DNA from: Atractiella rhizophila | Taxonomy: Eukaryota | Length of the DNA stretch: 51,476 bases | Assembly: GCA_021432655.1 (NCBI GenBank) | Contig: MU271492.1 | Span: 1-51,476 of the forward strand | Reading direction: 5' to 3' | Shown here: piece by piece, positions 34,406 through 49,400 of the stretch | How positions within the stretch are numbered: position 1 is the first letter of the stretch | Layout: the number at the start of each line of letters is the position of its first letter | Notes under the pieces: model-generated | The model's input: only the letters and a program-made list of their open reading frames with translations | The model's database searches: none | What the model was told of the DNA's origin: nothing | Program-made: the position numbers and the translations under genes

Positions 34406-35737
34406 GGGCGGGTCAGACGAAGAGTAAGTTCGAGTGGTGGGTTGAAGGGAACACGTATACTGGGTCCTCTACCACTAAGTCGACGAAGAAGGGAAGCTAC
34501 AATATTGGATGGACGAAACCGGCCACTCTGTTGGATTCTACTAGCGGGAAGTGGTATGGAAGAAGTAGACCGCAGTATGAACAGTATAAAACGACAGATT
34601 TCGTTAGCGTCAAGGCGGCAGGTGCGAAGGGGGATGGAAAGGCGGACGATACGGACGCCATTAATAAGGTGTTAAGCGCTGTAAGCCTCCCTTCTTACCA
34701 CTCCTGCAATAGATGGATAGGCTAAGTAATTGTCTCACAGAACGCAGGTTGCAAAATCATTTGTTCGTTCTTCATCCCCCCCAAGACTTCTATTCACCTT
34801 TGCTCCTTCCCTCCCTTTAACCATGTCTCTTAACCTTTGACATGCAGACTTTGACGCCGGCATCTACCGCGTGAAGAACACCATTAAAGTCCCACCCGGA
34901 ACACGCATCGTAGGCGAATCGTACCCAGTCATTCTCGGCTATGGCGCGAACTTTGCATCCGCCTCCTCTCCCCGTCCCGTCATCCAAGTTGGCACGAAGG
35001 GCAGTAGTGGTCTGGTGGAGATTTCAGGGATGGTTTTTGGCACTCAAGCAGGGGCTGCCGGTGCGCCATTCTTTCATCCTTTCTCTTGTCGCTCTTTGAA
35101 CATGTAATTTACAAGATGGCTTGTGGTAACCGGTACAGGTGCGAAAGTCGTGGAGTGGAATATCGATGCTGGACAGAAAGGAGGGATGTGGGATACCCAC
35201 GTCCGGATTGGAGGCGCTTATGGAACCAACCTCAGGTGATCGACGATTCACAACGTAGAAAGAAGGGATCCTGAATAGAACGCAGGTATTCGCAATGCCA
35301 AAAGCAGAGGAATAATGGAAACGACTGCATTGCGGCTAATATGGGCCTTCACATCACGAGTGGCGGGAGTGGGTACTTTGAGAATAACTGGATCTGGACC
35401 GCGGACCATGATATCGGTGAGTACTTCTACATTACTTTTCGTAGGATAGGACCGGAAGAGATTGAGCGAAGCGATAACAGAGGATAAGGATCAGAGACAG
35501 ATCGATGTTTATGTGCCCAGGGGTGTGCTTGTCGAGAGTGCTAAGGGACCAGTATGGGTGCGTTCCTTTCGAGACTCAACCGCGTAAAATACGCTAACTT
35601 GACTTTACTTAGTTGGTTGGCACCGGCTCAGAGCACAACACTCTTTACCAGTTCAACGTAGCCGGAGCTTCGAACGTCTTCATGGGTATGGTCCTCCTGC
35701 TCGTGTAGTTATAGTTGACGCAGTCCCTTCTAGGTAA
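34405..35737 (+). pseudogene. Internal fragment of a GH55 exo-beta-1,3-glucanase gene (spliced, both ends missing)
   Basis: YGRSRPQYE, VSVKAAGAKGDGKADDTDAIN, FDAGIYRVKNTIKVPPGTRIVGE, MWDTHVRIGG, YFENNWIWTADHD, GTGSEHNTLYQFN. No N-terminal half; cut by the LTR at 35738. Confidence 0.85.
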
Positions 35738-36038
35738 TGAGATTTTGGCTTGGGCTAAGTTGTCCCCAATCACGAAAGCGTGAGCACGATCAAAATGGAT
35801 AATAAAGTGATTTATTACAGAGCATATAAACATACCTAAGTTGTCCCCAATCACGAAAGCGTGAGCACGATCAAAATGGATAATAAAGTGATTGGGGAAA
35901 AGGAAGAGAATTTCGCAGGCGCTCCCTTATAGTACCGGACTTGCGGTGAAGTGCCACATGTTTGCTGATGCATCAGAATGCACGGCAAACACGGCAAACA
36001 CGCTTCGCATTCCATTGTTTCCATCACCCTTTCCAACA
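35738..36038 (-). repeat. 3' LTR of the copia element
   Basis: On the minus strand it starts TGTTGG right after the PPT. The end (..ATCTCA at 35738) is inferred from the return to GH55 sequence; there is no second LTR to confirm it. Confidence 0.7.
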
Positions 36039-36045
36039 CTCCCCC

Positions 36046-39000
36046 TCACTTCACCGCACCACTCTTTTCCACCCGCAGCCCTTCACCACCTCCTACACTC
36101 GAACCAGCCGTACCGTAATATTCATTTCCGGCAAGCCCCATGAGCGCACAGAACCTCCAGTGCATCGTCGCGGCGAGGCCTTTTGTGAGCACATCTGCGA
36201 TCTGATGCCTCGTCGGTATCCATTCTAGGAGCACGGTTCCGTCCTCCACCCGTTCCCGTGTGAAGTGGTAGTGTACCGCAATGTGCTTGGTCCTGCTGTG
36301 CGCAACCGGATGGGAGGCCAGGCGAATTGCTCCTTGATTATCACCTCGAATGAGGGTCGGCTTGAGGGAAGGGTATCCAAGGTCTGTGAGCAGCCTTCTT
36401 AGCCACACTGCCTCCCTAGTTGCCACTGACATAGCTACGTATTCCGCCTCCGTAGACGATACGGCCACCGACATCTGACGCTTCGAAATCCAAGAAATAA
36501 CCGCCCCTGCGTTCCGGAAAAGGACTCCTGAGACTGATCGACGGGTAACAGGGTCCGCGGCGTGGTCAGCGTCGACGAATGCATCTAGGGAAGGGACGGG
36601 GAAAGCGTAACCGTCGTAGACTAATCCATGGTCCAACGTCCCCGCCACATATCGATATATTCGCTTCATGGCTTGCCAATGACCCATTCCAGGGTTGTTG
36701 CAATACCTTGAAACCTCTGAGACGGCGTATGCGATGTCGGGGCGAGTGCACGCGGACAAGTATATAAGGGCCCCTACTGCTTCTCTGTAAGGTATTCCAC
36801 GCATGCGCTCCCGCCCCGTTGACGAGTTTGGAGATAGGTCTGGGGAAAGTCGTTTGTTGGCTTCACAAGGCATCTGCACGGGAGATACTGAGTCGCCAAG
36901 ATACTTGCGAACAATCTTCGTCGCATACCCTTTCTGATGAATCTTCACACGTCTCCCACCGTCTTCCCCTTCTATTTGGATACCAAGGAAAACGGATGCC
37001 GGGCCAGCCTGCAACTTGAAGAACTCTTCCAGTCGGTGGAATACTTCTTCAATCAGCGTTTCGGAACTACCAACCACGAGACCGTCGTCGACATGTAGGC
37101 AAATGATCACGACGTCCTTCCCTTTCCTCATCACGTATACCCCATCATCAGCCGATGTCTGTCGGAATCCCAATGCCGTAAGCACCCCTTTTATTTTCTT
37201 CCACCATTGACGCCCTGCTTGACATAGCCCATATAGGGCCTTCCCTAACTCGTGGACTTCATTTGGTCGTTCAGCATCCACAAACCCAGGCGCTTGTTTT
37301 ACGAACACCTCCTCCTCGATTTCCCCATTAAGGAATGCATTGCTGACATCGAACTGACGGCGTACCCAACCCTCCTGAGCAGAAATGGATAGCACTGCGC
37401 GAACAGATGCCATGCGAACTGTGGGTGCCCATGTCTCTTTGTAATCGACCCCGTGCGTTTGTTGATCACCCCGTACTACTAGTCGAGCCTTGTATTTAAT
37501 CACCTCCCCGGCTGGGTCCCGCTTTATCAATAGTACCCATTTTACTCCCAGCGCCTTCCTTCCTGGTGGAAGCTTTCTCAACCCTCCTTTCCATGTTCCC
37601 ATGGCCTCCAGCGCTGCCAGCTCTGCCACCATTGCGGCAATCCAGCGGTCGCGGTCCGGTCCTGCTACAGCTTCCTTGAAAGAAGGCTCGTCCATGTTCC
37701 CCGTCCAGTAGACTTGCTCGTTTGTTTCATCTTCGTCGTGGTCGGCTGTCAGTTGGAAGGCCTTTGGGTTTCGTCTAACTTCAGCAGCCAATTCCATGAC
37801 AGGTCCGTTCATGTCCCCATTCCCATAGATCTGTGTGTAGTAGATCCCTCGCTCATGCAACTTTTTGTAGTCCCAGGCTGGCCTTCCTGCGTTCCGTGCT
37901 CCTCTCCCCTCTCTCCTCTGCCTGTACGGTGAGAATCGTGCCCGAGTCTCCTCATCTTCTCTCGCCTTTCGTATCGTCTCTTCAATATGAGATACCTTCT
38001 CTTTCACGAACGATGCATCCTCTTCTGGCTGCAAAAGTACAGTTGGCGGTCTCGCCAGCATGTCCTCGCGATTTCCCGGCTCATCCACAGCTGCCTGTTT
38101 TCGTCTCAGGGTTGGAGACGGCGGCGCATCCACATCGTCGTCGTTATTTTGACTACACTGTTCTCCGCCTCCGGTATACGTGAGGTCCCCTGGCACCTCT
38201 ATCCTTCTTCCTCCAAGCTCCCCCTCAAGTTGACTCCGTGTCACCACTTCCGCTCCCTCCTGTGGCAAAAGCATAGGTAAGAAGTCCTCTGGTTCCAATG
38301 TCCGTATCCGCTCCGTTTCTTCCTCATTTCTCCTTGTATAGAACTGGTCTTCAAAGAATCTCGCCGACTTCGCCTCTACTATCCTTCGTTTCATAGGATC
38401 CCAGAATCTCCAACCGTAACCATCCGTAACATATCCCACAAAGTACATCATCTTCGCACGAGGAAGCAGTTTAGAATCCCGTTGCTCCGGCATAATCGTG
38501 ACTGCCGCCATGCAACCAAACACCCTGATGTGGGTAGTGTCTGGCTTCCTCCCGTGGAATACCTCATACGGCGATTGATTATCCTTGTTCCCCTTCGTAG
38601 GCATGATATTCTTCATGTATACGGCGACCCTTAACGCTTCGTACCAGAGGTACAACGGTAACCCCGATTCGAGTAGGAGACAGCGGACAATGTTAAAAAG
38701 GGTATACCACTGACGTTCCCACAGACCAGCTTGATCGTGTGCATACACCATGGTCTTCATAGATGCAATATTATGCTTATTGCACCAATCCTTCATCGCG
38801 TGTGACATGAATTCTGTCGCTTGGTCGTGTCGTATTTTCCTGAGGTCTACGTCCAAGTCCCGCTTTATGGCAGCCCGTATCCCTTCCAGTAACCGTGGCG
38901 CCTCAGACTTCAGCTTCATTCCTCCAACTATCATATACCTCGATGCTTCGTCTACTGCACCAAAAACGTATCGGAAACCCTGAATACTTGACAATGTGGC

Positions 39001-40971
39001 CGGTCCCCAGGTATCAAATCCTAGGGTTTTTCCTGGATTTTCCTCTCTGATGGTTGCAGGACCTTTACTCTTCGTGTATGTCGCCTTTCCTCTTGCACAA
39101 GTCAAGCACTGATGTAAATGTGTTGCATTGCAGGTACCCTTTATCTGAGACTTCGACAAAATTTCATGCTTGATAGCTAAGCGGAGCCGTTCGTTGCTCG
39201 GGTGACCTAACCGTTGATGCCAGACACGTATAGGCACTGCGATGAAGGTTGCATGAGGATTCTGATCCGGAGGTATTGAAGCGGGGAGGTAACTCGCCTG
39301 CAAGGTAATGAGCGTTCGGCCAATGGAAGCTATTCCGAACAATTTCCCATCCTTCCCATGCAGGTAGACCCTCTTCGTGTCATTGTTGAATACCACCCCA
39401 GCTTCCATCAGAATCTTGGACGAAATGAGATTCACTCCCAACCCTGGTGCGTAATACACGTTCCGTATCATTCCTACTGTTGTCGTCCCATCGTCGAGGA
39501 CGAATGCCGCTTTCAGGTTACCGATCGCCGTAGCAAATCCCTTTGAACCCCAAGCACCCTTGATGCCAATGGGTTTCTCAAGCTCCCTGAGATCATGCAG
39601 TAGCCATGGGCAGACGGTCAGATGAATCGAGGCAGCGCTATCAAGGTGGAAGGGGCGTATCGTGCCTTCGATCTGCTCTCCGTCGCTTATTCCAGCCATC
39701 AGTGCAAATCCTTCGCCTTCTGAATTGAGGCTGGCAATTTCTGACGGGTTCACGGTGTCAAGGTCAAACGATGTGATGTAGGCACCAAAGTCGACCGTTT
39801 CTAATCCATCGTCGTCGTCAACTTCCGCCAAATACGCTCCGGTTGACCCATCATAGTCCGACACCACGCCCAACTGTTCGTTATACGGTTTTCCCGTCGA
39901 AGGATCGTTATCCGTCGCACGTATCGGATTTGCATGTTGTTCGTCTGCAACAGTAGCAATGAGAACGTGTAGCTCGTTTCGGGGGACTTCGATGTCATAC
40001 TGCTTGAAAACAGCAAGGAGGGAGGCCGCCTGTTGTTTTCTGTTAAGATTGCAGTTGCGTCCATAATGACCGTCCTTCCCGCAGTGATAACACTGACGCG
40101 TTCCCAGTCGAAATTGTCCCCTCTCGGTTGTCCCATGGGGCCAATTTCCCCAATTTTTGATCGCTCTGGCATTCGGCGCAATCCTGTTGATCAATGGACG
40201 TTGTGGACGGCCATCGTTGCCCTCTCTCTTCTTTCCCATGTTCGAGGACGTGATCTGCTGAGGGGAGATCCTAGAGACGAGTGCGATGTCCTTATCTCCT
40301 GATCTGACCTCCTCCCTATTCCTCAAAGCCATCTCTTCCGCTGTCAGTCGGTTTACAACAGATGCGAGGTCAGCTTGGTTGACCCCTGTTGAGGATAGCC
40401 ACCTTCGCGTTTCTTCTCGCAAGCCATTGATGAGGGTATACGAAAGGAGAGTATCGCTAATCGTCAACTCGTCCTGGGACTCATTGAATATTCTTCTTCG
40501 CTCATGCAATTTCGCGATCCATTCGATAAGGCTGAGATTACTCGACTCGTGAGTAAAGTTCGTAAATTGGCGCAAAAGGTGTGCCGTGTCAGCAAATTCC
40601 TTGGTCTCGTATTTGTCCTTCAGAATCTTTATGGCCTTTACCGGATCCACCTGGTCTTCGATGAACACCCTCGCTGTGTCTCCCACAGATTGCTTCAAGA
40701 CCATCATCGCAACGGCCGCCATGCGTCTCCAGTTCGACAAAGCCTTGATGAACGCAGTATTCTCCTCATCCGTTGGGCTCTTTATCTTCGGAGTTTGACC
40801 CTTGGACATCATCTCTTGCATCTGCGTCACCGTCAACCCTTCCTCAGACATAGGGCTGACTGGTTCCGTCACGATGCCATCCAGCAGAATCCCCACATTG
40901 TTCGCGTCGAGGATGGATTTCAGAGAGCGGAAGAACCTGGTGGAATTTTGGAGAGTGAGGGGAGGAATCTT
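36046..40971 (-). CDS. Copia Gag-Pol polyprotein, about 1640 aa, uninterrupted, in frame with the upstream host gene
   Basis: ORF 36046-41046 has no stops; Gag N-terminal-like IPPLTLQNSTRFFRSLKSIL begins near 40968. Confidence 0.9.
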   Translation of the reverse strand, partial: KIPPLTLQNSTRFFRSLKSILDANNVGILLDGIVTEPVSPMSEEGLTVTQMQEMMSKGQTPKIKSPTDEENTAFIKALSNWRRMAAVAMMVLKQSVGDTARVFIEDQVDPVKAIKILKDKYETKEFADTAHLLRQFTNFTHESSNLSLIEWIAKLHERRRIFNESQDELTISDTLLSYTLINGLREETRRWLSSTGVNQADLASVVNRLTAEEMALRNREEVRSGDKDIALVSRISPQQITSSNMGKKREGNDGRPQRPLINRIAPNARAIKNWGNWPHGTTERGQFRLGTRQCYHCGKDGHYGRNCNLNRKQQAASLLAVFKQYDIEVPRNELHVLIATVADEQHANPIRATDNDPSTGKPYNEQLGVVSDYDGSTGAYLAEVDDDDGLETVDFGAYITSFDLDTVNPSEIASLNSEGEGFALMAGISDGEQIEGTIRPFHLDSAASIHLTVCPWLLHDLRELEKPIGIKGAWGSKGFATAIGNLKAAFVLDDGTTTVGMIRNVYYAPGLGVNLISSKILMEAGVVFNNDTKRVYLHGKDGKLFGIASIGRTLITLQASYLPASIPPDQNPHATFIAVPIRVWHQRLGHPSNERLRLAIKHEILSKSQIKGTCNATHLHQCLTCARGKATYTKSKGPATIREENPGKTLGFDTWGPATLSSIQGFRYVFGAVDEASRYMIVGGMKLKSEAPRLLEGIRAAIKRDLDVDLRKIRHDQATEFMSHAMKDWCNKHNIASMKTMVYAHDQAGLWERQWYTLFNIVRCLLLESGLPLYLWYEALRVAVYMKNIMPTKGNKDNQSPYEVFHGRKPDTTHIRVFGCMAAVTIMPEQRDSKLLPRAKMMYFVGYVTDGYGWRFWDPMKRRIVEAKSARFFEDQFYTRRNEEETERIRTLEPEDFLPMLLPQEGAEVVTRSQLEGELGGRRIEVPGDLTYTGGGEQCSQNNDDDVDAPPSPTLRRKQAAVDEPGNREDMLARPPTVLLQPEEDASFVKEKVSHIEETIRKAREDEETRARFSPYRQRREGRGARNAGRPAWDYKKLHERGIYYTQIYGNGDMNGPVMELAAEVRRNPKAFQLTADHDEDETNEQVYWTGNMDEPSFKEAVAGPDRDRWIAAMVAELAALEAMGTWKGGLRKLPPGRKALGVKWVLLIKRDPAGEVIKYKARLVVRGDQQTHGVDYKETWAPTVRMASVRAVLSISAQEGWVRRQFDVSNAFLNGEIEEEVFVKQAPGFVDAERPNEVHELGKALYGLCQAGRQWWKKIKGVLTALGFRQTSADDGVYVMRKGKDVVIICLHVDDGLVVGSSETLIEEVFHRLEEFFKLQAGPASVFLGIQIEGEDGGRRVKIHQKGYATKIVRKYLGDSVSPVQMPCEANKRLSPDLSPNSSTGRERMRGIPYREAVGALIYLSACTRPDIAYAVSEVSRYCNNPGMGHWQAMKRIYRYVAGTLDHGLVYDGYAFPVPSLDAFVDADHAADPVTRRSVSGVLFRNAGAVISWISKRQMSVAVSSTEAEYVAMSVATREAVWLRRLLTDLGYPSLKPTLIRGDNQGAIRLASHPVAHSRTKHIAVHYHFTRERVEDGTVLLEWIPTRHQIADVLTKGLAATMHWRFCALMGLAGNEYYGTAGSSVGGGEGLRVEKSGAVK

Positions 40972-42638
40972 CTCAAGCCCTTGCTCCAGGTCTGCTCTCA
41001 AATCCTCAAAGTCTTCCACGCCAATCGACAAACGGACTGTGACCAAAATGTTGGCATGCTTCCATCACATAGAAAAAGAGGAGCGCACCTAAACGGGGAT
41101 CTTCTGTAGGATCAGAGAGTAAACGCTGCTCGATCAAACTCTCCACTCCTCCTTCAATTCCAGTCCAGAAAAGGCAGAGTATATTATCAGCATTACCTCC
41201 GAAATTCATAAGTAAAAATGAGCATACCAAGAGACGTTGCCGGCTTCAGTGAATGTTCAGCGAGAATTGACAGGGCAGAAACATAAATCGGCGCACCGTA
41301 AAGAGTTTCAACGCAAAAGGCAAGCGTGCAGCGGCATCCTTGTCTTTCATCTATCGCTCGCTCTTAGCCTACATCTCTGCTTCTGAACAGCGAGAGAGAG
41401 TCATACAAAGATCGAAAAGCAGGCGGGTCCCGCTTCGAGTTGTTTTCCTTTCCCAATCAATCCCTCCGCTCCTTCCTGCAAACTCGCGTGCCACACCTTC
41501 TCTACCTCCTTCCTCCCGTTCAACCACTGTGCGATCTTCGTTCCGGTCTCAGCCTGTCTGGGGACGCGCAAATGCAGCGTGCGCAGGGAGCGAAGGACGA
41601 GCCATTGTTCCATGGATCCGGGAACGAGTCCGAGGTACGTGCGAGTGTGCCAGAGGGAGTTCCAGGTCTCCATTGATTTAACCGAGAGGGTGCCCATGAG
41701 AGCGTCGGAATGGCCTCCCTTTCGCAGTGCAAAGAGATGAGGGTGGTAAAGACGGAGAGAAGTTAAACCGTACGAAATATTTCGTTCCACTGTGCATGAT
41801 TACATCTACTCCCCACTTAAAAGGATCTGATAGAGGAGGTGGCGCCAAGGTGGAGTCAACCACAAGAATTCCTTGCTCAGGAAGCTTTTTTCGATCTGCC
41901 ATGTATCCCGTCAGTAAGGTAATTTGGAATGAAATGGAGGTGGCAAACAGAAAGCAAGGTCTCGAACCTCTCCTGTCGGGTTCAACGGGGTCTCCACCCA
42001 GGCAAGTGTTTTAGGATGAGTGAACGGTTCCGAGAGATCAATCAATTTCTGATTCCAATCGATTTATTACGTGTCCAATGCGGTCCATAAAAAGGGACGC
42101 ACCACATTGTTTGAACCCTTTAGCTCGACATATTTCTCGATAACCATATGCACGCCATGATATCCCTTTGTAATAGCAATCACTTCCTGCCACCCGCATC
42201 TCAGCTTGACCTCGATATTGACGATTGGAGGTTCACTGGTTGATAGTGCATAAGCACCCCGAAAGCTGCGCTCAATCCACTTCCGTAGACGATGGTATGC
42301 CCTCCAATAGCCGCAGAAAGAACTTTTTCGAGCCGATAAAGGACGGGCGTTGAATACCTTCACCGGAGACAGCAAAAGTCAAAATCGAAGCAGATGAAGG
42401 ACCACGTAGGTTTACCTGGAATAAAGGTATGTCTTTGGGTCCTCTGGATCGAATTCTACGTACTCTCCATCAGCGGAAGGAGTATGCCGGAAAGTGGTTG
42501 TGAGCCTGGAAGTCACAGTTTAGCACTAGAAATAAAAGGAAGAAAAAGGTGAACAGACGAGATCGAAGGTGCGACATCTGCTCTTTCGTGAGCGTCATCG
42601 GCATGTAGAAGAGTGGTGCCTAGTTGTTGTGGTGACAT
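40972..42638 (-). CDS. Cys/Met metabolism PLP-dependent trans-sulfuration enzyme (cystathionine gamma-lyase/synthase family, YHR112C-like), 11 exons, no stop codon of its own
   Basis: LGTTLLHAD, YLYSRYSTP, YGSGLSA, GYHG, WVETPLNPTG, VVDSTLAPP, MHSGTKYFGGHSD (PLP lysine), LRSLRTLHLRV, ATSLGGVESLIE, VRLSIGVEDFEDL. All intron phases are consistent. Confidence 0.92.
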
Positions 42639-43698
42639 TTTCGTATTCTTCCCCGCTTGGTTTTGTGCTACTGCAATGCCCTTACTTCCAACGTTTTGGA
42701 GAGCAGTATATGTATACGATGGAGAGCAACAAATTCGTCTGAGTCGCGGTGACAGCAGGGGACTTTATAGGGGATTTTACAGGGAGTTTATGGGGACAAA
42801 AATGAGCTAAAATGTCGTGCCTCCTTTCATTGATTCCTTCGATTCGGCACAGAATTCGGCGGATTTCTTCTCGCGAACAAGGACAGAATACAAATTGTCC
42901 AACAAAAATTGTCCAACAACTGCGGAATGATTGCGAAAACTGGAATTGACTGGAAAACCCTGTCATAAATAGGGAGGGATGCAGGTACCAGATAGAAAAC
43001 GAAGAAGACGAATTTTCACTGCCAGTATCCTATCCTGTTCTGTTACTGTAGTGCTGTTGTTCAAGCTTCTTTCTGGTTTCAAGGGAACTGCTATTCAAAG
43101 TCTTAAGAAATAGGACCTTTTGGTTCATCGTCGGTCCCATAATCATGACATTCTAAAGGAAGAGTTGTTTGAACTCAGGTTTGACGGACAGTTACCAGGA
43201 GGACATTCCTCACCCACCGTTCATTAGATGACCTAGAATAAATCCAACGGGTACGTTAATGAGTTGAAGGAAGTATAACAGTTAGTATTGAGAGTATCAA
43301 AAGTAATTTTGAACTACAGCTGAAGTACTGACGATGGAAGAACTGGAAGAACGCAGGAAGAACGACACAACGAAGTATGAACAGCTGCCTCAAGAAAATG
43401 CCTCACCCAAAAGGAGTAGATAGAGCCTAGCTCACCAAAAGAAGAAGGGAAGAATAAGTAGGTATGTGGCGTAAGTGTAGAAAAGAATGACGACGTTTGT
43501 ACACAGCGGAACAGCGAGACCTTCACGCAACTGGAGATAATAGGAATCCATCCATCAAGCAATCCAATCCAATCACTTGTCTCCTTATTTTAAATTTGAC
43601 CGCAAGGACCCCAGTCAGGGGTCCATCACCGCTCAGCTTCTTCCACAAAGCGATGTGTCCTCCACTCCTTCCCTGCCTCATCCGATCGAAAAGGTCGC

Positions 43699-46494
43699 TC
43701 AATGTCTCCTCTTATCTTCATCCTCCACCTCCTCATCTGCTCCCCTTACCCGACTCCGATCCTCCATCCTCACACTCGCACAATCAATCGCGTCCTCCGG
43801 CTTGACACCAATGTCTTCCTCCACTAACCTATCGTATCCATACTTGCACCATCCATACCTCGTCTTCCTCAAAATCATCTCCCTCAATTTCGGATCGAAT
43901 TTATTCCACGCCGAGAAAGCAGGTGACTTCCTCGAGTAATAAGGCTGATTCGAATCCGTGCCATTCGGGTTGAAAAGGGAGCAACTGAGGTTCGGAAGAG
44001 TAGGGCGATATTCCTGAGGTAGGAGGAAAGCGAGAAGTCCGAGCATCTCAGTCAAAGTGTTCGAACGAAGATCCTCGTATCTCATCACGTGAGTGGCAAT
44101 TGGCGCGTCGTCCCAATAATTCGTATGTTGGATCCATTGATCTGCGAACCCGCTGATTTGCGTCCACTGGGAGAGGGGAATGAAGTCGTTCTCAGAGTGC
44201 CAAGAGTGATCGCGCTCTCCAGCTTCGTTTTTCGGCGCATGACGGAAATTCCAATAGGAGTAGATGGCATCGATGGGGTTCCTCACTATCATTCACCGGT
44301 ACATTAGCGGCTACATCGGAGCGAAGGAGCGAAATGATCAAGGACGAACCTAGATGAACTGTCTGATCCCATTGCCTCCAATAGTCCTCGATAACATCCC
44401 CGGTCAAGACGGGATAATGAGTCTTAATGAGCCACTTCTCGGTCCTGTCGCACTCTCCCAAAAAGGTCTTCCTCAGCGCCGGATCACAATAAATAGAGCT
44501 CGTCCTGAAACCCGTCGTTTTCTCCAACAACGATCGAATATACGAATTGCCGCTCCTTGGGAAGGTGACAAGTCCAGTCTTCGGCGTGCTGTCCAGGGTA
44601 GGGAACTGGCTCGTTTCAACATGGGAGTCTGGGCAGGAGCCGACGGTACCGGAAAGAGTGGCGAGTTGTTCCCCCCATGTTGCCTGTTGTGCGATAGTTT
44701 CGGCGAGGAGTGAAGAGTCGAATGCCTTCTCGAACGGGTTGAGGTTGTGGAAGGTTGTTTTGAGGCTTTCGGTGTCGACGGACGGTAGAGGAGTACCGAG
44801 GAAAGGGGAGATGATGATGGAAAGGATGAGAGGAACGAGGACCGGGATTCCGTACTGCTTGAATGCTGCATCACGAACCGAGCACGAAAGAATTAGTATG
44901 GATGTTCGTCCACAAAAAAAACGTTTAGCTTTGGGATCGCATTCAATTTTTCACACTTCACACGTTGACAACCGTCGGAACTTTGGACGGTTTCTGAAAA
45001 TACCACTCCGTCTTCCCGAGTGAGTCCAAGATAGCCATGCGAGGCATAAATAGAGATTTTGTTCTCCTTCAGAGCTACAAATAACCCGCATGGTCTCTTA
45101 GGCCAATTCTCCTCCCCCCAATTCTCCTCCCCTCCAATCCCCAAACGAAAGCGAAAGCGAGAGCAAGAAGAAAAAGAAGACGTACGTCCGCCAGGTTTAG
45201 GTTTCGACACCTCAGGAAGATCGGGCAAAAACTTTTCTTCCTCCATATCCCTCAAATTCCGACTCGTAATGCGAGCGTGGCTCCTGGTGTCCTCCCTCGA
45301 ATAGCTGCGTCCATGGCTCCTAATCTCTCGTTGTCCTTCTCCTCCAGAAGTCGGTTTCGGATCATCGAATCTCTTATCCATCTTTATCCACACTCCACTT
45401 CCTACCCATCCAACTCCCAGCCAGCCAGCGCCGCCGATCTTTCCTAGGTTTCCAAAGATACCAGCATTGATGAGAATGCCAAGAAATTGGCGAACCGTCA
45501 TTATTGTCGATGACATGAGGGCGCCAAAATTGGAAATGGTGGATAAAAGGACGACCAGGCCAAGACAGGAAGTGAGGGACAGGAGGATGATGGATCCTCC
45601 CACGCTGAGGGGGTATTTGATGATGAGGAGAAGAGATGTGCCGACAGAGGAAGTGGGGGAGGAGAAGTGAGAAAAGACAAGGGTGATGAAGCTGATGGCA
45701 CAGGCGAAGAAGTTGACCCACACCATCTGGTCGAGAATGGGCGAGTTGGCAGTAAAAGGATTCATCCCGCCTGATGCACCGGCATCCTTGCTCTTTCCGA
45801 AGACTCGCTCCTGTGTCGTCGACGTAAGGCCGTCGAAGAAGAGATATCCGAGCAAGAGTGCAGCGCCGAGGAATCCTTCCCATCCGTCTGCTCCCTCTTT
45901 TCCTTCGCTCTCCTCTCCGCCGAACCACAGATAGGTCGCACCTCCGAGGACAACTAGCGAGGCGCCAATCCATTCTCGGGTCTTATGGCTCTTGCCGTAG
46001 ACGCATTTGCCGACAACGAGGACAGGTACCATTTTCACTGTCTTCGCAAGAGATTGGGTTGTGAAGGAGACATGCTTGAGTGCCTCGTATTGGCAAGTAG
46101 TGGAGAGGAAATTAAATATGGAGACGAGGAAGTAGGCATAGATTGGGGAGGCAGGCATGAGGAGAGATAGGATTGATTGACCTGGTACGGGTTGGTGGGA
46201 AGGAGAGCGCATACGGAGCGAGAGGAGCATGAATGCTCCTGTCGTGCAGGAAAAGAGGCGGTTGAAGAAAACTAGTAGTGGAGAGGAAGTAAAGCGCTCT
46301 TCATTCTCTCCTATACAACGGAGCCTTCAACGTCCCGCAGCCTTTGCAGCAGAGGGAAAGGACAAACCATAAGTGCCTTTCATGATCTTCTCTTGCAAAA
46401 TGCCATAAAGACTGTACAAAACGAAGATCCCTATTCCATGAGCGAGGAGGCCCAGGCCTCCCCCTCCATCGGCACGATGTGAGGTGGCGGTCAT
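43699..46494 (-). CDS. Fusion gene: PAPS transporter (UAA/SLC35B2-like) + TM anchor + sulfotransferase domain
   Basis: Transporter: LYGILQEKIM, ERFTSSPLLVFFNR, CQYEALKHVSFTTQSLAK, YLFFDGLTS, IMTVRQ. A phase-1 intron at 45185-44866 leads to YGIPVLVPLILSIIISPFLG, then TFPRSGNSYIRSLLE (5'-PSB), KTHYP, VRNPIDAIYSYW (3'-PB) and MRYEDL. Confidence 0.82.
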
Positions 46495-49400
46495 TTGAAT
46501 GAGTGTTGTCCAAAGAGTGTTCTGCGCCAGCCACCTATGAACTCGCCCGTGCCATAAGAGAACAGGAAACTCACGTCTTACACGTATGCTTGAATCGTCT
46601 GAGTGAGGAATTTTAAAAAACGAGGCCTTTCCTTCGTGGTCGTTCTGGCTCTTCTGCGACTTCGGAAAATTTCGAACGGCAACCTAAAACACAGTCTTGG
46701 CGTCGATGTTGAAATGACCGGCTGAGCTCTCTAAAGTAGCTCCTACTTCTAATTTTGATAGATAATGTGGGTTTGGTTAGCAAAGGGAAGTAGAATTGGA
46801 GGAGGTTAGCTTTATGAAATATGAGGAATGGCTACGGGCTACGGAGGTCCGTGTGGTTGTCAACTTCGGGAACGAGGAAAAGGGGAGAAGGAGCTGCGAG
46901 CTGCTGCTCCGTCGGCAGACCTTCTGTACATTCATGTGAGAGAAGAAAGGAACAGGAGTGGCGTTCTCCAAGGGCAGTCATGTCTTGTTTTGTCAATAGA
47001 CCTGCGAGAACCTGACCCCTGGAGCACTTTATAGTCCAGTGCTTTCAGCAGTTCATTGCCGTCATCGGCATGAGTGCGGAATCTGATGCGCAGATGTCCC
47101 ATCCTCTCCCTGTACATTTTGTGTTTCTTCATCCCTTACTGGCTATTGCGCGAAAGGAAAAGAGGCATCCGTAAGGGATATGAGTGTCTTCTATGGACTT
47201 CACCGTAAGTTCAATTTAGATGGCAATGTTTTTACCCCGTTTCTGCTCAGTAATGCGCGCCTCTCAAGTTGTATATCTGGTGTGATACTGAAGAAGGGCT
47301 TAAGCAGCTCCTAACGGAAATACAACACGTCTCGTGATTTGGCAGAGAGTTATCTTGATTTCCACTTTGCAGGCTCGTTAATTCTTCACTCATTGTCAAA
47401 CCGTGATATTTTGCTTTTTTTACTTGAGGTTGACTCTGAGGCCAACAGTTTCGCCAAATGAAATTTCGATCATTGCCCAATTTGAAATTGTTATCAGCCC
47501 GACTCAGACAACATTTCGCCAGCAGAACATCCTTGTAAAGCTTTAGTCATCGCGTTAGGCAGCAAAACAAACTTGTGATAGGCATCTGTAATCAACAGCG
47601 GTGTCTGCGCGTGTTCTTTGCTCGTCCATTGGTCCCTGATATTCCGTAAGAGTTATCCCCTCTTTCAGTAGTTCTTTTCACAGCTGGTCTAGGTTCTAAT
47701 CTTTCTACACATAACAGAACAAAAACAAAGTAGATCATGACATCAAAAAAGCTAGGCACGAGCCTTCTGCACGCAGATGACTCTCACGAAAGAGCAGAGG
47801 TCGCACCGTCGATCTCGTCTGTCCCTCTTCTCTTTCGCTGTGCTATCTCCCAGCTAACGTTTAGCTCCAAGGCTATCAACGACCTTCCGTCACATTCCTT
47901 CAGCCGACAGCGAGCATGTACAATTTGACCCTGTAGACCCAAAGACACACCTTTATGCTCGGTAGCGTCATCTTGTCCGTCTGGCTGCCGTGCCTTTAGT
48001 GTTTACTGTTTCGGAAAAAAAAAAAAAACCCAGGCCTCCCCCTCCATCGGCACGATGTGAGGTGGCAGTCATTTGAATGAGTGTTGTCCAAAGAGTGTTC
48101 TGCACCAGCCACCTATGAACTCGCCCGTGCCATAAGAGAACAGGAAACTCACGTCTTACACGTATGCTTGAATCGTCTGAGTGAGGAATTTTAAAAAACG
48201 AGGCCTTTCCTTCGTGGTCGTTCTGGCTCTTCTGCGACTCCGGAAAATTCGAACGGCAACCTAAAACACAGTCTTGGCGTCGATGTTGAAATGACCGGCT
48301 GAGCTCTCTAAAGTAGCTTCTACTTCTAATTTTGATAGATAATGCGAGTTTGGTTAGCAAGGGAAGTCGTTTTGGAGGAGGTTAGCTTTATGAAATATGA
48401 GGAATGGCTACGGGCTACGGAGGTCCATGTGGTTGTCAACTTCGGGAACGAGGAAAAGGGGGAGAAGGAGCTGCGAGCTGCTGCTCCGCCGGCAGACCTT
48501 CTGTACATTCATGTGAGAGAAGAAAGGAACAGGAGTGGCGTTCTCCAAGGGCAGTCATGTCTTGTTTTGTCAATAGACCTGCGAGAACCTGAGCCCTGGA
48601 GCACTTTATAGCCCAGTGCTTTCAGCAGTTCATTGCCGTCATCGGCATGAGTGCGGAATCTGATGCGCAGACGTCCCATCTCCCTGTACATTATGTGTTT
48701 CTTCATCCCTTATTGGCTATTGTGCGAAAGGAAAAGAGGCATCCGCAAGGGATATGAGTGTCTTCTATGGACTTCACCGTAAGATCAATTTAGATGGCAA
48801 TGTTTTTACCCCGTTCCTGCTCAGAAATGCATGCCTCTCAAGCTGTATATCTGGTGTGATACTGAAGAAGGGCTTAAGCAGCTCTCTAACGGAAATACAA
48901 CACGTCTCGTGATTTGACGATGAGTTATCTTGATTTTCGCTCTGCAGGCTCGTTGAGTCTTCACTCATTGGCGAACCATGATATTTTGGTTTCTTTACTT
49001 GAGGTTGACTCTGAGGGAGAACACAACAGTTCGGAGCAAACTACCACATCAACTGTTTCTCCAGTGGAAGGTCCTCCTGCATGAAAACAATGCCATCTCA
49101 AACATCTCAGGGTCTGTGGGTTGGGAAGAATCAAAAGGAAGACGCTGAAGGAAGGATAGTCCAAAGTACTTGATGTGTTCTAGGTTAAAACCTTTGGGTT
49201 TTGTCACTTATCCTGTCCAACAAATCTGCATGTTTGCAAAGACAGCCATGTTAATGTTACGAGATTTATGAAAGGAAGTCCAATTACGACTGCGTTGGAG
49301 AACTATCATCGGCATCCATCCATTTATCTCCTAACGACAGGACTCTGAGGATTCTAATTATGATTAATGGAACACTCAGTTTTATTCATCATGGATCCAT

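Follow-up and report, generated by a model that had tools for sequence, protein, structure and literature searches.

The window analyzed here, a stretch of 51,476 nucleotides (nt) of DNA from the root-associated fungus Atractiella rhizophila (contig MU271492.1 of GenBank assembly GCA_021432655.1), carries on its minus strand, at 46494-43699, a gene of four exons whose coding sequence of 2355 nt specifies a protein of 784 amino acids (aa), in which a membrane transporter is followed by a sulfotransferase. Transcript contigs from two independent runs joined the two parts by splicing, and it is practically certain that they belong to one spliced mRNA and one protein and thus represent a real fusion. 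The broader proposal, that this single 784-aa membrane protein both supplies and uses a sulfate donor, 3'-phosphoadenosine 5'-phosphosulfate (PAPS), is considered fairly probable as a whole. A prediction made from the letters of the window alone (the original prediction) had suggested a fusion of this kind, in which a PAPS transporter of the SLC35B2/PAPST1 type would serve a sulfotransferase held in the Golgi lumen.

Splicing of both coding parts into one mRNA

Assembled Logan contigs from runs X1 (library type presumed) and X3 (a metatranscriptomic library made from roots, according to its record) were aligned to positions 43600-46600 of the window. All three splice joints were present in contigs of both runs, with the 57-, 64-, and 320-nt introns removed. 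At the 45186/44865 junction, which the original prediction had proposed as the link between the two parts, contigs of both X1 and X3 skipped exactly 44866-45185 (CT..AC on the plus strand), with 255 letters aligned on either side of the joint, and the mean depth in both runs was 0 in both bins covering 44913-45114 within this intron. A single X1 contig of 2000 nt ran from 46449 to 44009, from exon 1 to exon 4, without any of the three introns, and an X3 contig (record 11) spanned 46367-46487 with the joint of exon 1 to exon 2 at 46367/46309. Because a cis-splice joint links them, both coding parts lie on one RNA; an absence of spliced reads joining the exons, named beforehand as grounds for abandoning the fusion, was contradicted by the joint in the contigs of two independent runs. 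The raw-read RNA runs X20 and X22 had 0 reads matching 43600-46600 and were thus uninformative on splicing.

The letters around the junction agreed with this arrangement in every detail that had been pointed out. The transporter exon ends with CCT GGC GGA C at 45186, followed by GTACGT; a TACTAAT branch site lies at 44898-44892, and TGCAG runs to 44866. Exon 3 opens with CA TTC AAG at 44865, where C plus CA gives Pro, and the phase across 45186/44865 therefore matches. Retention of this intron would give a stop at 44895-44893. The downstream stop-to-stop frame (44950-44192) has no Met ahead of FPRSGNSY and contains, as listed earlier, a hydrophobic segment, KTH, VRNPIDAIYSY, and RYEDL. Exon ends were refined with a coordinate-joining script, and a single open frame arose only with the set of exons given in the table below.

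The contigs differed from the window at approximately 2% of sites (approximately 98% identity) and therefore derive from close relatives of the sequenced strain. Of 40 listed differences (14 further ones lay outside this list), 39 were synonymous and 37 fell at third codon positions; the only replacement was V146I, and the synonymous differences included sites in the region of the 11th helix and the stem that follows it. Since the differences are nearly all synonymous, the whole fused frame, including the join, is by this sequence comparison under purifying selection.

Correction of the deposited gene model

A search with exon 4 found, at 100% identity, a deposited 751-aa “UAA-domain-containing protein [Atractiella rhizophila],” for which the precomputed Pfam matches were PF03151, PF08449, and PF00685. 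The deposited model drops 14 and 19 residues (approximately 44815-44774 and 44755-44699; 42 and 57 nt) as two extra introns. These two small introns lack transcript support, as the contigs read through both: contigs of X1 and X3 covered 44350-44865 without a gap and retained the 42- and 57-nt pieces. The residues encoded there complete the 11th helix and align with the Sporobolomyces protein. Because the transcripts keep both pieces and the pieces align in this way, the 784-aa form is supported, with the 11th helix at full length, and the deposited model is corrected from 751 to 784 aa.

An initial homologue search with exon 4, limited to longer proteins, returned only the gene's own record, and no NCBIfam family was matched for the 751-aa record (P0004) or for the related proteins P0012 and P0009. 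Searches of the open literature turned up no account of such a transporter-sulfotransferase fusion, and none of a sulfotransferase from these fungi. The earlier statement that no characterized example was known therefore held as far as published descriptions of the fusion are concerned; it needs qualifying in that fused models are already public under automatic names. Both parts belong to known families, and the fused architecture itself is uncharacterized.

Relationship of the transporter half to SLC35B2

With exon 2 alone, the score for PF08449 (UAA) was 94.1 bits (E = 1.1e-26), above the family cut-off of 26.2. An AlphaFold2 model, built on the 751-aa deposited protein with 119 aligned sequences (mean predicted local distance difference test score [pLDDT], 84.7), placed ten helices within residues 12-353, in the 10-helix drug/metabolite transporter (DMT) fold. 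The best solved structural match was human SLC35B1 (9i20_A), with Z = 30.7, a root mean square deviation of 2.7, 289 of 295 residues aligned, and 28% identity (VIA-align); other DMT-fold carriers, namely, TPT, CST, and Vrg4, followed at Z values of 20 to 26.

Sequence comparisons gave a different order. The motifs ERFT.S..LV..NR and CQYEALK.VSF, on which the assignment to PAPST1 had been based, are common to the query and human SLC35B2, and SLC35B1 has SNSALQFVNY where the other two have CQYEALK.VSF. In blastp, human SLC35B2 isoform b (P0181) was matched with 130 bits and 31% identity over 322 columns. In phmmer, the 50%-identity cluster holding human SLC35B2 isoform b scored 101.7 bits versus 64.2 bits for SLC35B1, and a fusion from Mixia showed a similar score ratio (101 versus 60 bits); for scale, the two human proteins, SLC35B2 and SLC35B1, match each other with 118 bits. 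By sequence scores and motifs, the transporter half is thus nearer to SLC35B2 than to SLC35B1.

A FastTree phylogeny of 100 transporter domains, which was unrooted and held no SLC35B1/Hut1, SLC35B3, or SLC35B4 references, placed all fused or helix-11-bearing rows on one side of a branch with a support of 100. The other 71 rows, on the opposite side, included human SLC35B2, an ascidian “PAPST1,” algae, plants, and aphelids, and the fungal clade stood beside, not inside, the group with human SLC35B2. The original prediction had named a grouping of the transporter with Hut1/SLC35B1 as a finding that would speak against it; on bit scores, the transporter lies nearer to SLC35B2 than to SLC35B1.

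Fold and conserved residues of the sulfotransferase half

The C-terminal half has a sulfotransferase domain, as predicted, on the strength of a PAPS-type fold (Z = 14.4 to Teg12) together with the conserved motifs PRSGN, K-x-H, RNPxD...S, and RYE. Of 28 scanned relatives, 22 matched PF00685 at E values of ≤0.001, and 18 reached the family cut-off. Structural matches of the enzyme covered residues 475-715 and included the following: Teg12 (Z = 14.4) and SULT3A1 (Z = 14.3), over 203 to 208 residues; StaL (Z = 12.5 to 13.2); the TPSTs (Z = 12.0 to 12.4); and heparan sulfate 3-OST and NDST (Z = 10.6 to 11.1).

Across 14 aligned fused proteins (positions are numbered as in the 751-aa record; 33 is added for the 784-aa protein), the invariant residues were T481, R488, S489, G490, N491, R495, E499, C511, E522, C523, K532, H534, S566, H610, W614, R625, Y626, E627, C658, Y672, S674, F680, C703, and G706, and the nearly invariant ones were R558, N559, P560, D562, C462, and C725. 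Judged by SULT and TPST structures, we take the conserved motifs to be the 5'-phosphosulfate loop, the catalytic His, the Arg and Ser that bind the 3'-phosphate, and the YED motif. Because these assumed roles fit its conserved residues, the enzyme domain looks active. Its acceptor may be a glycan or a glycoprotein, as the original prediction had suggested.

A conserved 11th helix and the membrane side of the enzyme

In the AlphaFold2 model, helix 10 is followed by a K/R-rich disordered linker of approximately 60 residues (pLDDT of <50 for residues 369-407); the linker stretch contains 17 K/R and 13 D/E residues. The extra helix that had been noticed between the two halves was borne out by the alignment, in which a QY..P...P helix occurs at the same place in all 14 fused proteins, with P429 (751-aa numbering) nearly invariant. 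No other stretch in the protein's second half is as hydrophobic as this helix 11 (Kyte-Doolittle [KD] mean of 2.19 over 19 residues), which has K/R on its linker side and is followed by an acidic stem. Seven transporter-only models, from three Rhodotorula, one Meredithblackwellia, one Chlorociboria aeruginascens (an ascomycete), and two others, all end 10 to 20 residues past a helix-11-like segment and are probably truncated gene predictions. Animal-type and aphelid transporters have no helix 11.

Carriers of this fold, including Vrg4, CST, and SLC35B1, have cytosolic ends. A review passage likewise places the C-terminal tail of an SLC35 protein in the cytosol (PMC6709370). With the transporter ends in the cytosol and one extra span, the enzyme domain would therefore lie in the lumen. 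Six cysteines of the enzyme part, four of them invariant and two nearly so, also fit a lumenal side, as do two N-x-S/T sequons (NLS and NGT; residues 688 and 697 in the 784-aa numbering). Where names were looked up for 10 unfused sulfotransferase relatives, six had no protein name and four were called “hypothetical protein.” Among the unfused eukaryotic relatives, 10 start with Met and leave 19 or more residues ahead of the domain; of these 10, 8 had a hydrophobic 19-mer (KD of ≥1.6) upstream of the domain, and 7 of these 8 segments lay within the first 50 residues, like signal anchors. The data fit residence in the Golgi and residence in the endoplasmic reticulum (ER) alike; the Golgi is the location that the original prediction had proposed.

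Distribution of the fused architecture

Both domains were carried by 29 of 158 proteins in a local phmmer search, and in 28 of these 29 the transporter preceded the enzyme. A search for the same architecture in other fungi had been proposed with the original prediction, and fused models were indeed present in nine further named basidiomycetes, including the following: Meredithblackwellia eburnea (three), Sporobolomyces ruberrimus, Rhodosporidiobolus microsporus, Mixia osmundae (two; named “Sulfotransferase domain-containing protein” in UniProt), Pseudohyphozyma bogoriensis, Phenoliferia sp. (two), Microbotryomycetes sp. JL221, and the tremellomycete Kwoniella bestiolae. Several other fusions were plain open reading frames (ORFs) from Logan/ENA contigs that run from helix 10 through helix 11 into the enzyme, independently of eukaryotic gene modeling. 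Judged from these sequences, the arrangement is conserved across several basidiomycete classes. In the tree of the enzyme domains, all fused rows fell in one group of 27, apart from 10 anchor-bearing unfused rows, with a support of only 83.

One protein of Pseudohyphozyma bogoriensis (P0008; 971 aa) has the same type of transporter and helix 11, followed by PF13469 (Sulfotransfer_3) instead of PF00685. Provided that this gene model is correct, two PAPS-using families have been attached to the transporter, which would be the strongest indirect reason to regard PAPS as its cargo.

Two transporter models, one from Chlorociboria aeruginascens (Ascomycota; P0024) and P0165, end after a helix-11-like segment and group with the fused rows. 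Given this grouping, the fusion architecture may extend beyond Basidiomycota.

Comparison with known transporters and sulfotransferases

The fungal transporter shares with human SLC35B2/PAPST1, the Golgi PAPS transporter, the UAA family, the 10-helix core, and both motifs; the human protein, in contrast, has an N-terminal extension, ends after helix 10, and possesses neither helix 11 nor an enzyme. Human SLC35B1/AXER, the ATP/ADP exchanger of the ER (PDB 9i20 and 9grz), is the closest among solved structures; it differs in its lower sequence score, at the CQYEALK motif, in its ATP/ADP cargo, and in lacking helix 11 and the enzyme.

The enzyme half resembles the Sulfotransfer_1 enzymes SULT3A1, SULT1B1, Teg12, and StaL, as well as TPST1/2 and 3-OST/NDST, in the PAPS-binding fold (Z = 14.4 to 10.6 over approximately 190 to 210 residues). 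It presumably has the same order of motifs as the SULTs (P-loop, catalytic His, and RNPxD...S), and its P-loop has Arg where cytosolic SULTs have Lys. It differs from the solved sulfotransferases in its low identity to them (12 to 20%), its conserved cysteines, and its membrane tether; no solved family stands out, and the fungal enzyme is therefore assigned to a separate subfamily.

The original prediction had also likened the enzyme, on its FPxSGN/KTH pattern, to WSCD-type sulfotransferases, and such a resemblance of motifs is plausible. According to one report (PMC9304399), WSCD1/2 are type II Golgi sialate O-sulfotransferases with orthologues in deuterostomes only and have a lumenal catalytic domain, with 5'-phosphosulfate-binding (5'-PSB) and 3'-phosphate-binding (3'-PB) motifs, behind a single membrane span. 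In this comparison, made with WSCD by description only, the fungal protein differs in that no WSC domain (PF01822) was found in the pieces of the window or in the 28 relatives scanned. The 30 protein-atlas clusters nearest to the enzyme were generic sulfotransferase clusters, with no WSC family among them, a weak lead that was not used for orthology. Unlike type II Golgi sulfotransferases, which have a single N-terminal signal anchor, the fungal enzyme has as its anchor helix 11 of a transporter that spans the membrane many times; in function it is probably similar to a type II enzyme, though its construction differs.

Non-covalent pairs of Golgi proteins include the UDP-galactose transporter with a galactosyltransferase and SLC35A3 with Mgat enzymes. 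The fungal protein is like these pairs in keeping the importer of a donor together with its user; in contrast, its coupling is covalent and would serve sulfation.

Proposed mechanism and alternative explanations

In the model considered fairly probable above, cytosolic PAPS made by sulfate-assimilation enzymes would be imported by the transporter half, probably by antiport against the product 3'-phosphoadenosine 5'-phosphate (PAP) or against AMP. Helix 11 would carry the chain across the membrane, and the tethered enzyme, sitting in the Golgi or ER lumen, would move sulfate onto a lumenal acceptor, which might be a glycan, a glycolipid, a secreted protein, or a metabolite. The fusion would give 1:1 expression and a shared address for the supply and the use of the donor, and the gain would come from this stoichiometry and co-location where cytosolic PAPS reductase competes for the donor.

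Several observations weigh against this model or limit its reach. Exon 4 alone matched PF00685 with 21.6 bits (E = 1.6e-4), just below the 22-bit cut-off. Solved sulfotransferases of very different substrates all matched the enzyme at Z values of 11 to 14, and because of this no acceptor can be read from the fold. For the other named species, the fused models are gene predictions; that of P0008 bears, in addition, a stray Sulfotransfer_1-type fragment at its N terminus and may be in part a chimera of two neighboring genes. The contigs come from strains approximately 98% identical to the window, not proven to be the strain of the window. Because rare variants are lost from contigs, there may also be a minor unfused isoform that arises by intron retention. 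Orthology with SLC35B2 is not shown by an unrooted tree without SLC35B1/Hut1, SLC35B3, and SLC35B4. The cargo is presumed from sequence to be PAPS, and we infer the lumenal orientation, the Golgi residence, and the antiport.

That the fusion is real and its transporter carries another nucleotide, either ATP/ADP, as in SLC35B1/AXER, or a UDP-sugar, as in Hut1/SLC35B4, is considered unlikely; PAPS would then reach the sulfotransferase by another route, or the two halves would share a pathway for a different reason. Such a cargo would agree with SLC35B1 being the only solved relative and the best structural match, with a protein-atlas feature search (not used for orthology) that put an automatically named “Solute carrier family 35 member B1” cluster first, and with the fungal clade, only 31% identical to human SLC35B2 and separated by a long branch (0.64) from the remaining 71 rows of a tree that includes neither SLC35B3 nor Hut1. 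However, the bit scores favored SLC35B2 over SLC35B1 for both Atractiella and Mixia, CQYEALK.VSF is common to SLC35B2 and not to SLC35B1, and the fusion of the same transporter type to two families of PAPS-dependent sulfotransferases is hard to explain unless the cargo is their shared donor. Quite improbable is an arrangement in which helix 11 fails to cross the membrane, or the topology of the transporter is unusual, and the enzyme is cytosolic, anchored to an endomembrane, and active on a cytosolic or membrane-leaflet substrate. The nearest solved sulfotransferases do include cytosolic SULTs (Z = 13 to 14), and the lumenal topology is itself deduced, but helix 11 is strongly hydrophobic and conserved, K/R residues stand on its linker side and acidic residues after it, six cysteines of the enzyme are conserved, and the unfused relatives have N-terminal helices like signal anchors; moreover, an importer of the donor would be of no use to an enzyme in the cytosol.

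The explanation that annotation or assembly alone has linked two neighboring genes, and that the sulfotransferase has a first exon of its own, is hardly credible. The length of the 320-nt intron, five times that of the 57- and 64-nt introns, and the deposition of some relatives as transporter-only models would be in keeping with it; yet the GT..AG joint was found with 255 matching letters per side in two independent runs, with no coverage in the middle of the intron, and no in-frame Met precedes the catalytic motif. In addition, the transporter-only models all stop just past the helix-11-like segment, and ORFs from unannotated Logan/ENA contigs span both domains.

Implications for sulfation in fungi

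Secretory-pathway sulfation is well studied in animals and plants and hardly described in fungi. To our knowledge, baker's yeast has no Golgi PAPS transporter and serves as a null background for assaying animal ones. A conserved and expressed fusion leads one to expect sulfated molecules in the secretions or walls of some fungi and offers one gene to knock out to find them. It would also serve as a natural “Rosetta stone” for the view that donor transporters of the Golgi form working units with their enzymes, and it provides a compact part for engineering sulfation in yeast.

A wider proposal, held tentatively and thought somewhat doubtful as it stands, is that several fungal lineages, mostly plant-associated or phylloplane basidiomycetes, run their own lumenal sulfation pathway by means of an “import-and-use” machine made of a single polypeptide, whose tethered enzyme is coupled to the entry of PAPS and the exit of PAP. 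If this were true, sulfated secreted glycans, glycolipids, or peptides would be an overlooked class of fungal surface or signaling molecules, and the fusion would demonstrate, by a natural example, a fixed partnership between donor transporters of the Golgi and their enzymes.

Gene layout and neighboring features

The features of the fusion gene are listed in the table.

Table. Exons, introns, and encoded motifs of the Atractiella rhizophila fusion gene (positions in the window)
Feature	Position	Strand	Description
Exon 1	46368..46494	-	ATG at 46494 and first transmembrane helix of the transporter
Intron 1	46311..46367	-	57 nt, GT..AG; absent from X1 and X3 contigs; reading frame checked
Exon 2	45186..46310	-	Rest of the 10-helix UAA/SLC35B-type transporter (residues ~11-355) and K/R-rich linker (~45378-45186)
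Intron 2	44866..45185	-	320 nt, GTACGT...TACTAAT (44898-44892)...CAG; absent from X1 and X3 contigs
Exon 3	44350..44865	-	Helix 11, lumenal stem (predicted), N-terminal half of the sulfotransferase
11th transmembrane helix (predicted), GIPVLVPLILSIIISPFLG	44795..44851	-	Residues 423-441 of the 784-aa protein; conserved QY just before
PRSGN	44560-44546	-	Exon 3
K-T-H	44425-44417	-	Exon 3
Intron 3	44286..44349	-	64 nt, GT..AG; skipped in X1 (side 255) and X3 (side 28)
Exon 4	43699..44285	-	C-terminal half of the sulfotransferase; stop TGA at 43701-43699
RNPIDAIYS	44283-44257	-	Exon 4
RYEDL	44082-44068	-	Exon 4

Intron 2, five times longer than either of the other two, lies exactly between the part encoding the presumably cytosolic linker and that encoding helix 11, and possibly represents what is left of a spacer that once separated two genes. 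An Rfam scan of 43300-47000 gave no match at E values of ≤0.1, hence no sign of an intron-borne RNA, and a scan of this intron for bacterial-type promoters and terminators, a type of scan ill-suited to a fungus, found nothing.

Approximately 2.6 kb downstream of the fusion gene, an uninterrupted frame of 1672 aa at 36046-41064 on the minus strand encodes a Ty1/copia-type retroelement with RVT_2 (E = 1.2e-59), integrase core, gag-pre-integrase, and SH3-like domains; a search for its long terminal repeats as direct repeats of at least 80 nt in 34500-43000 found none. Between the retroelement and the fusion gene, an exon-sized frame at 41404-41799 on the minus strand matched the pyridoxal phosphate-dependent enzymes of Cys/Met metabolism (PF01053; E = 1.1e-16), and the proximity of this sulfur-amino-acid gene to the fusion gene is probably coincidental.

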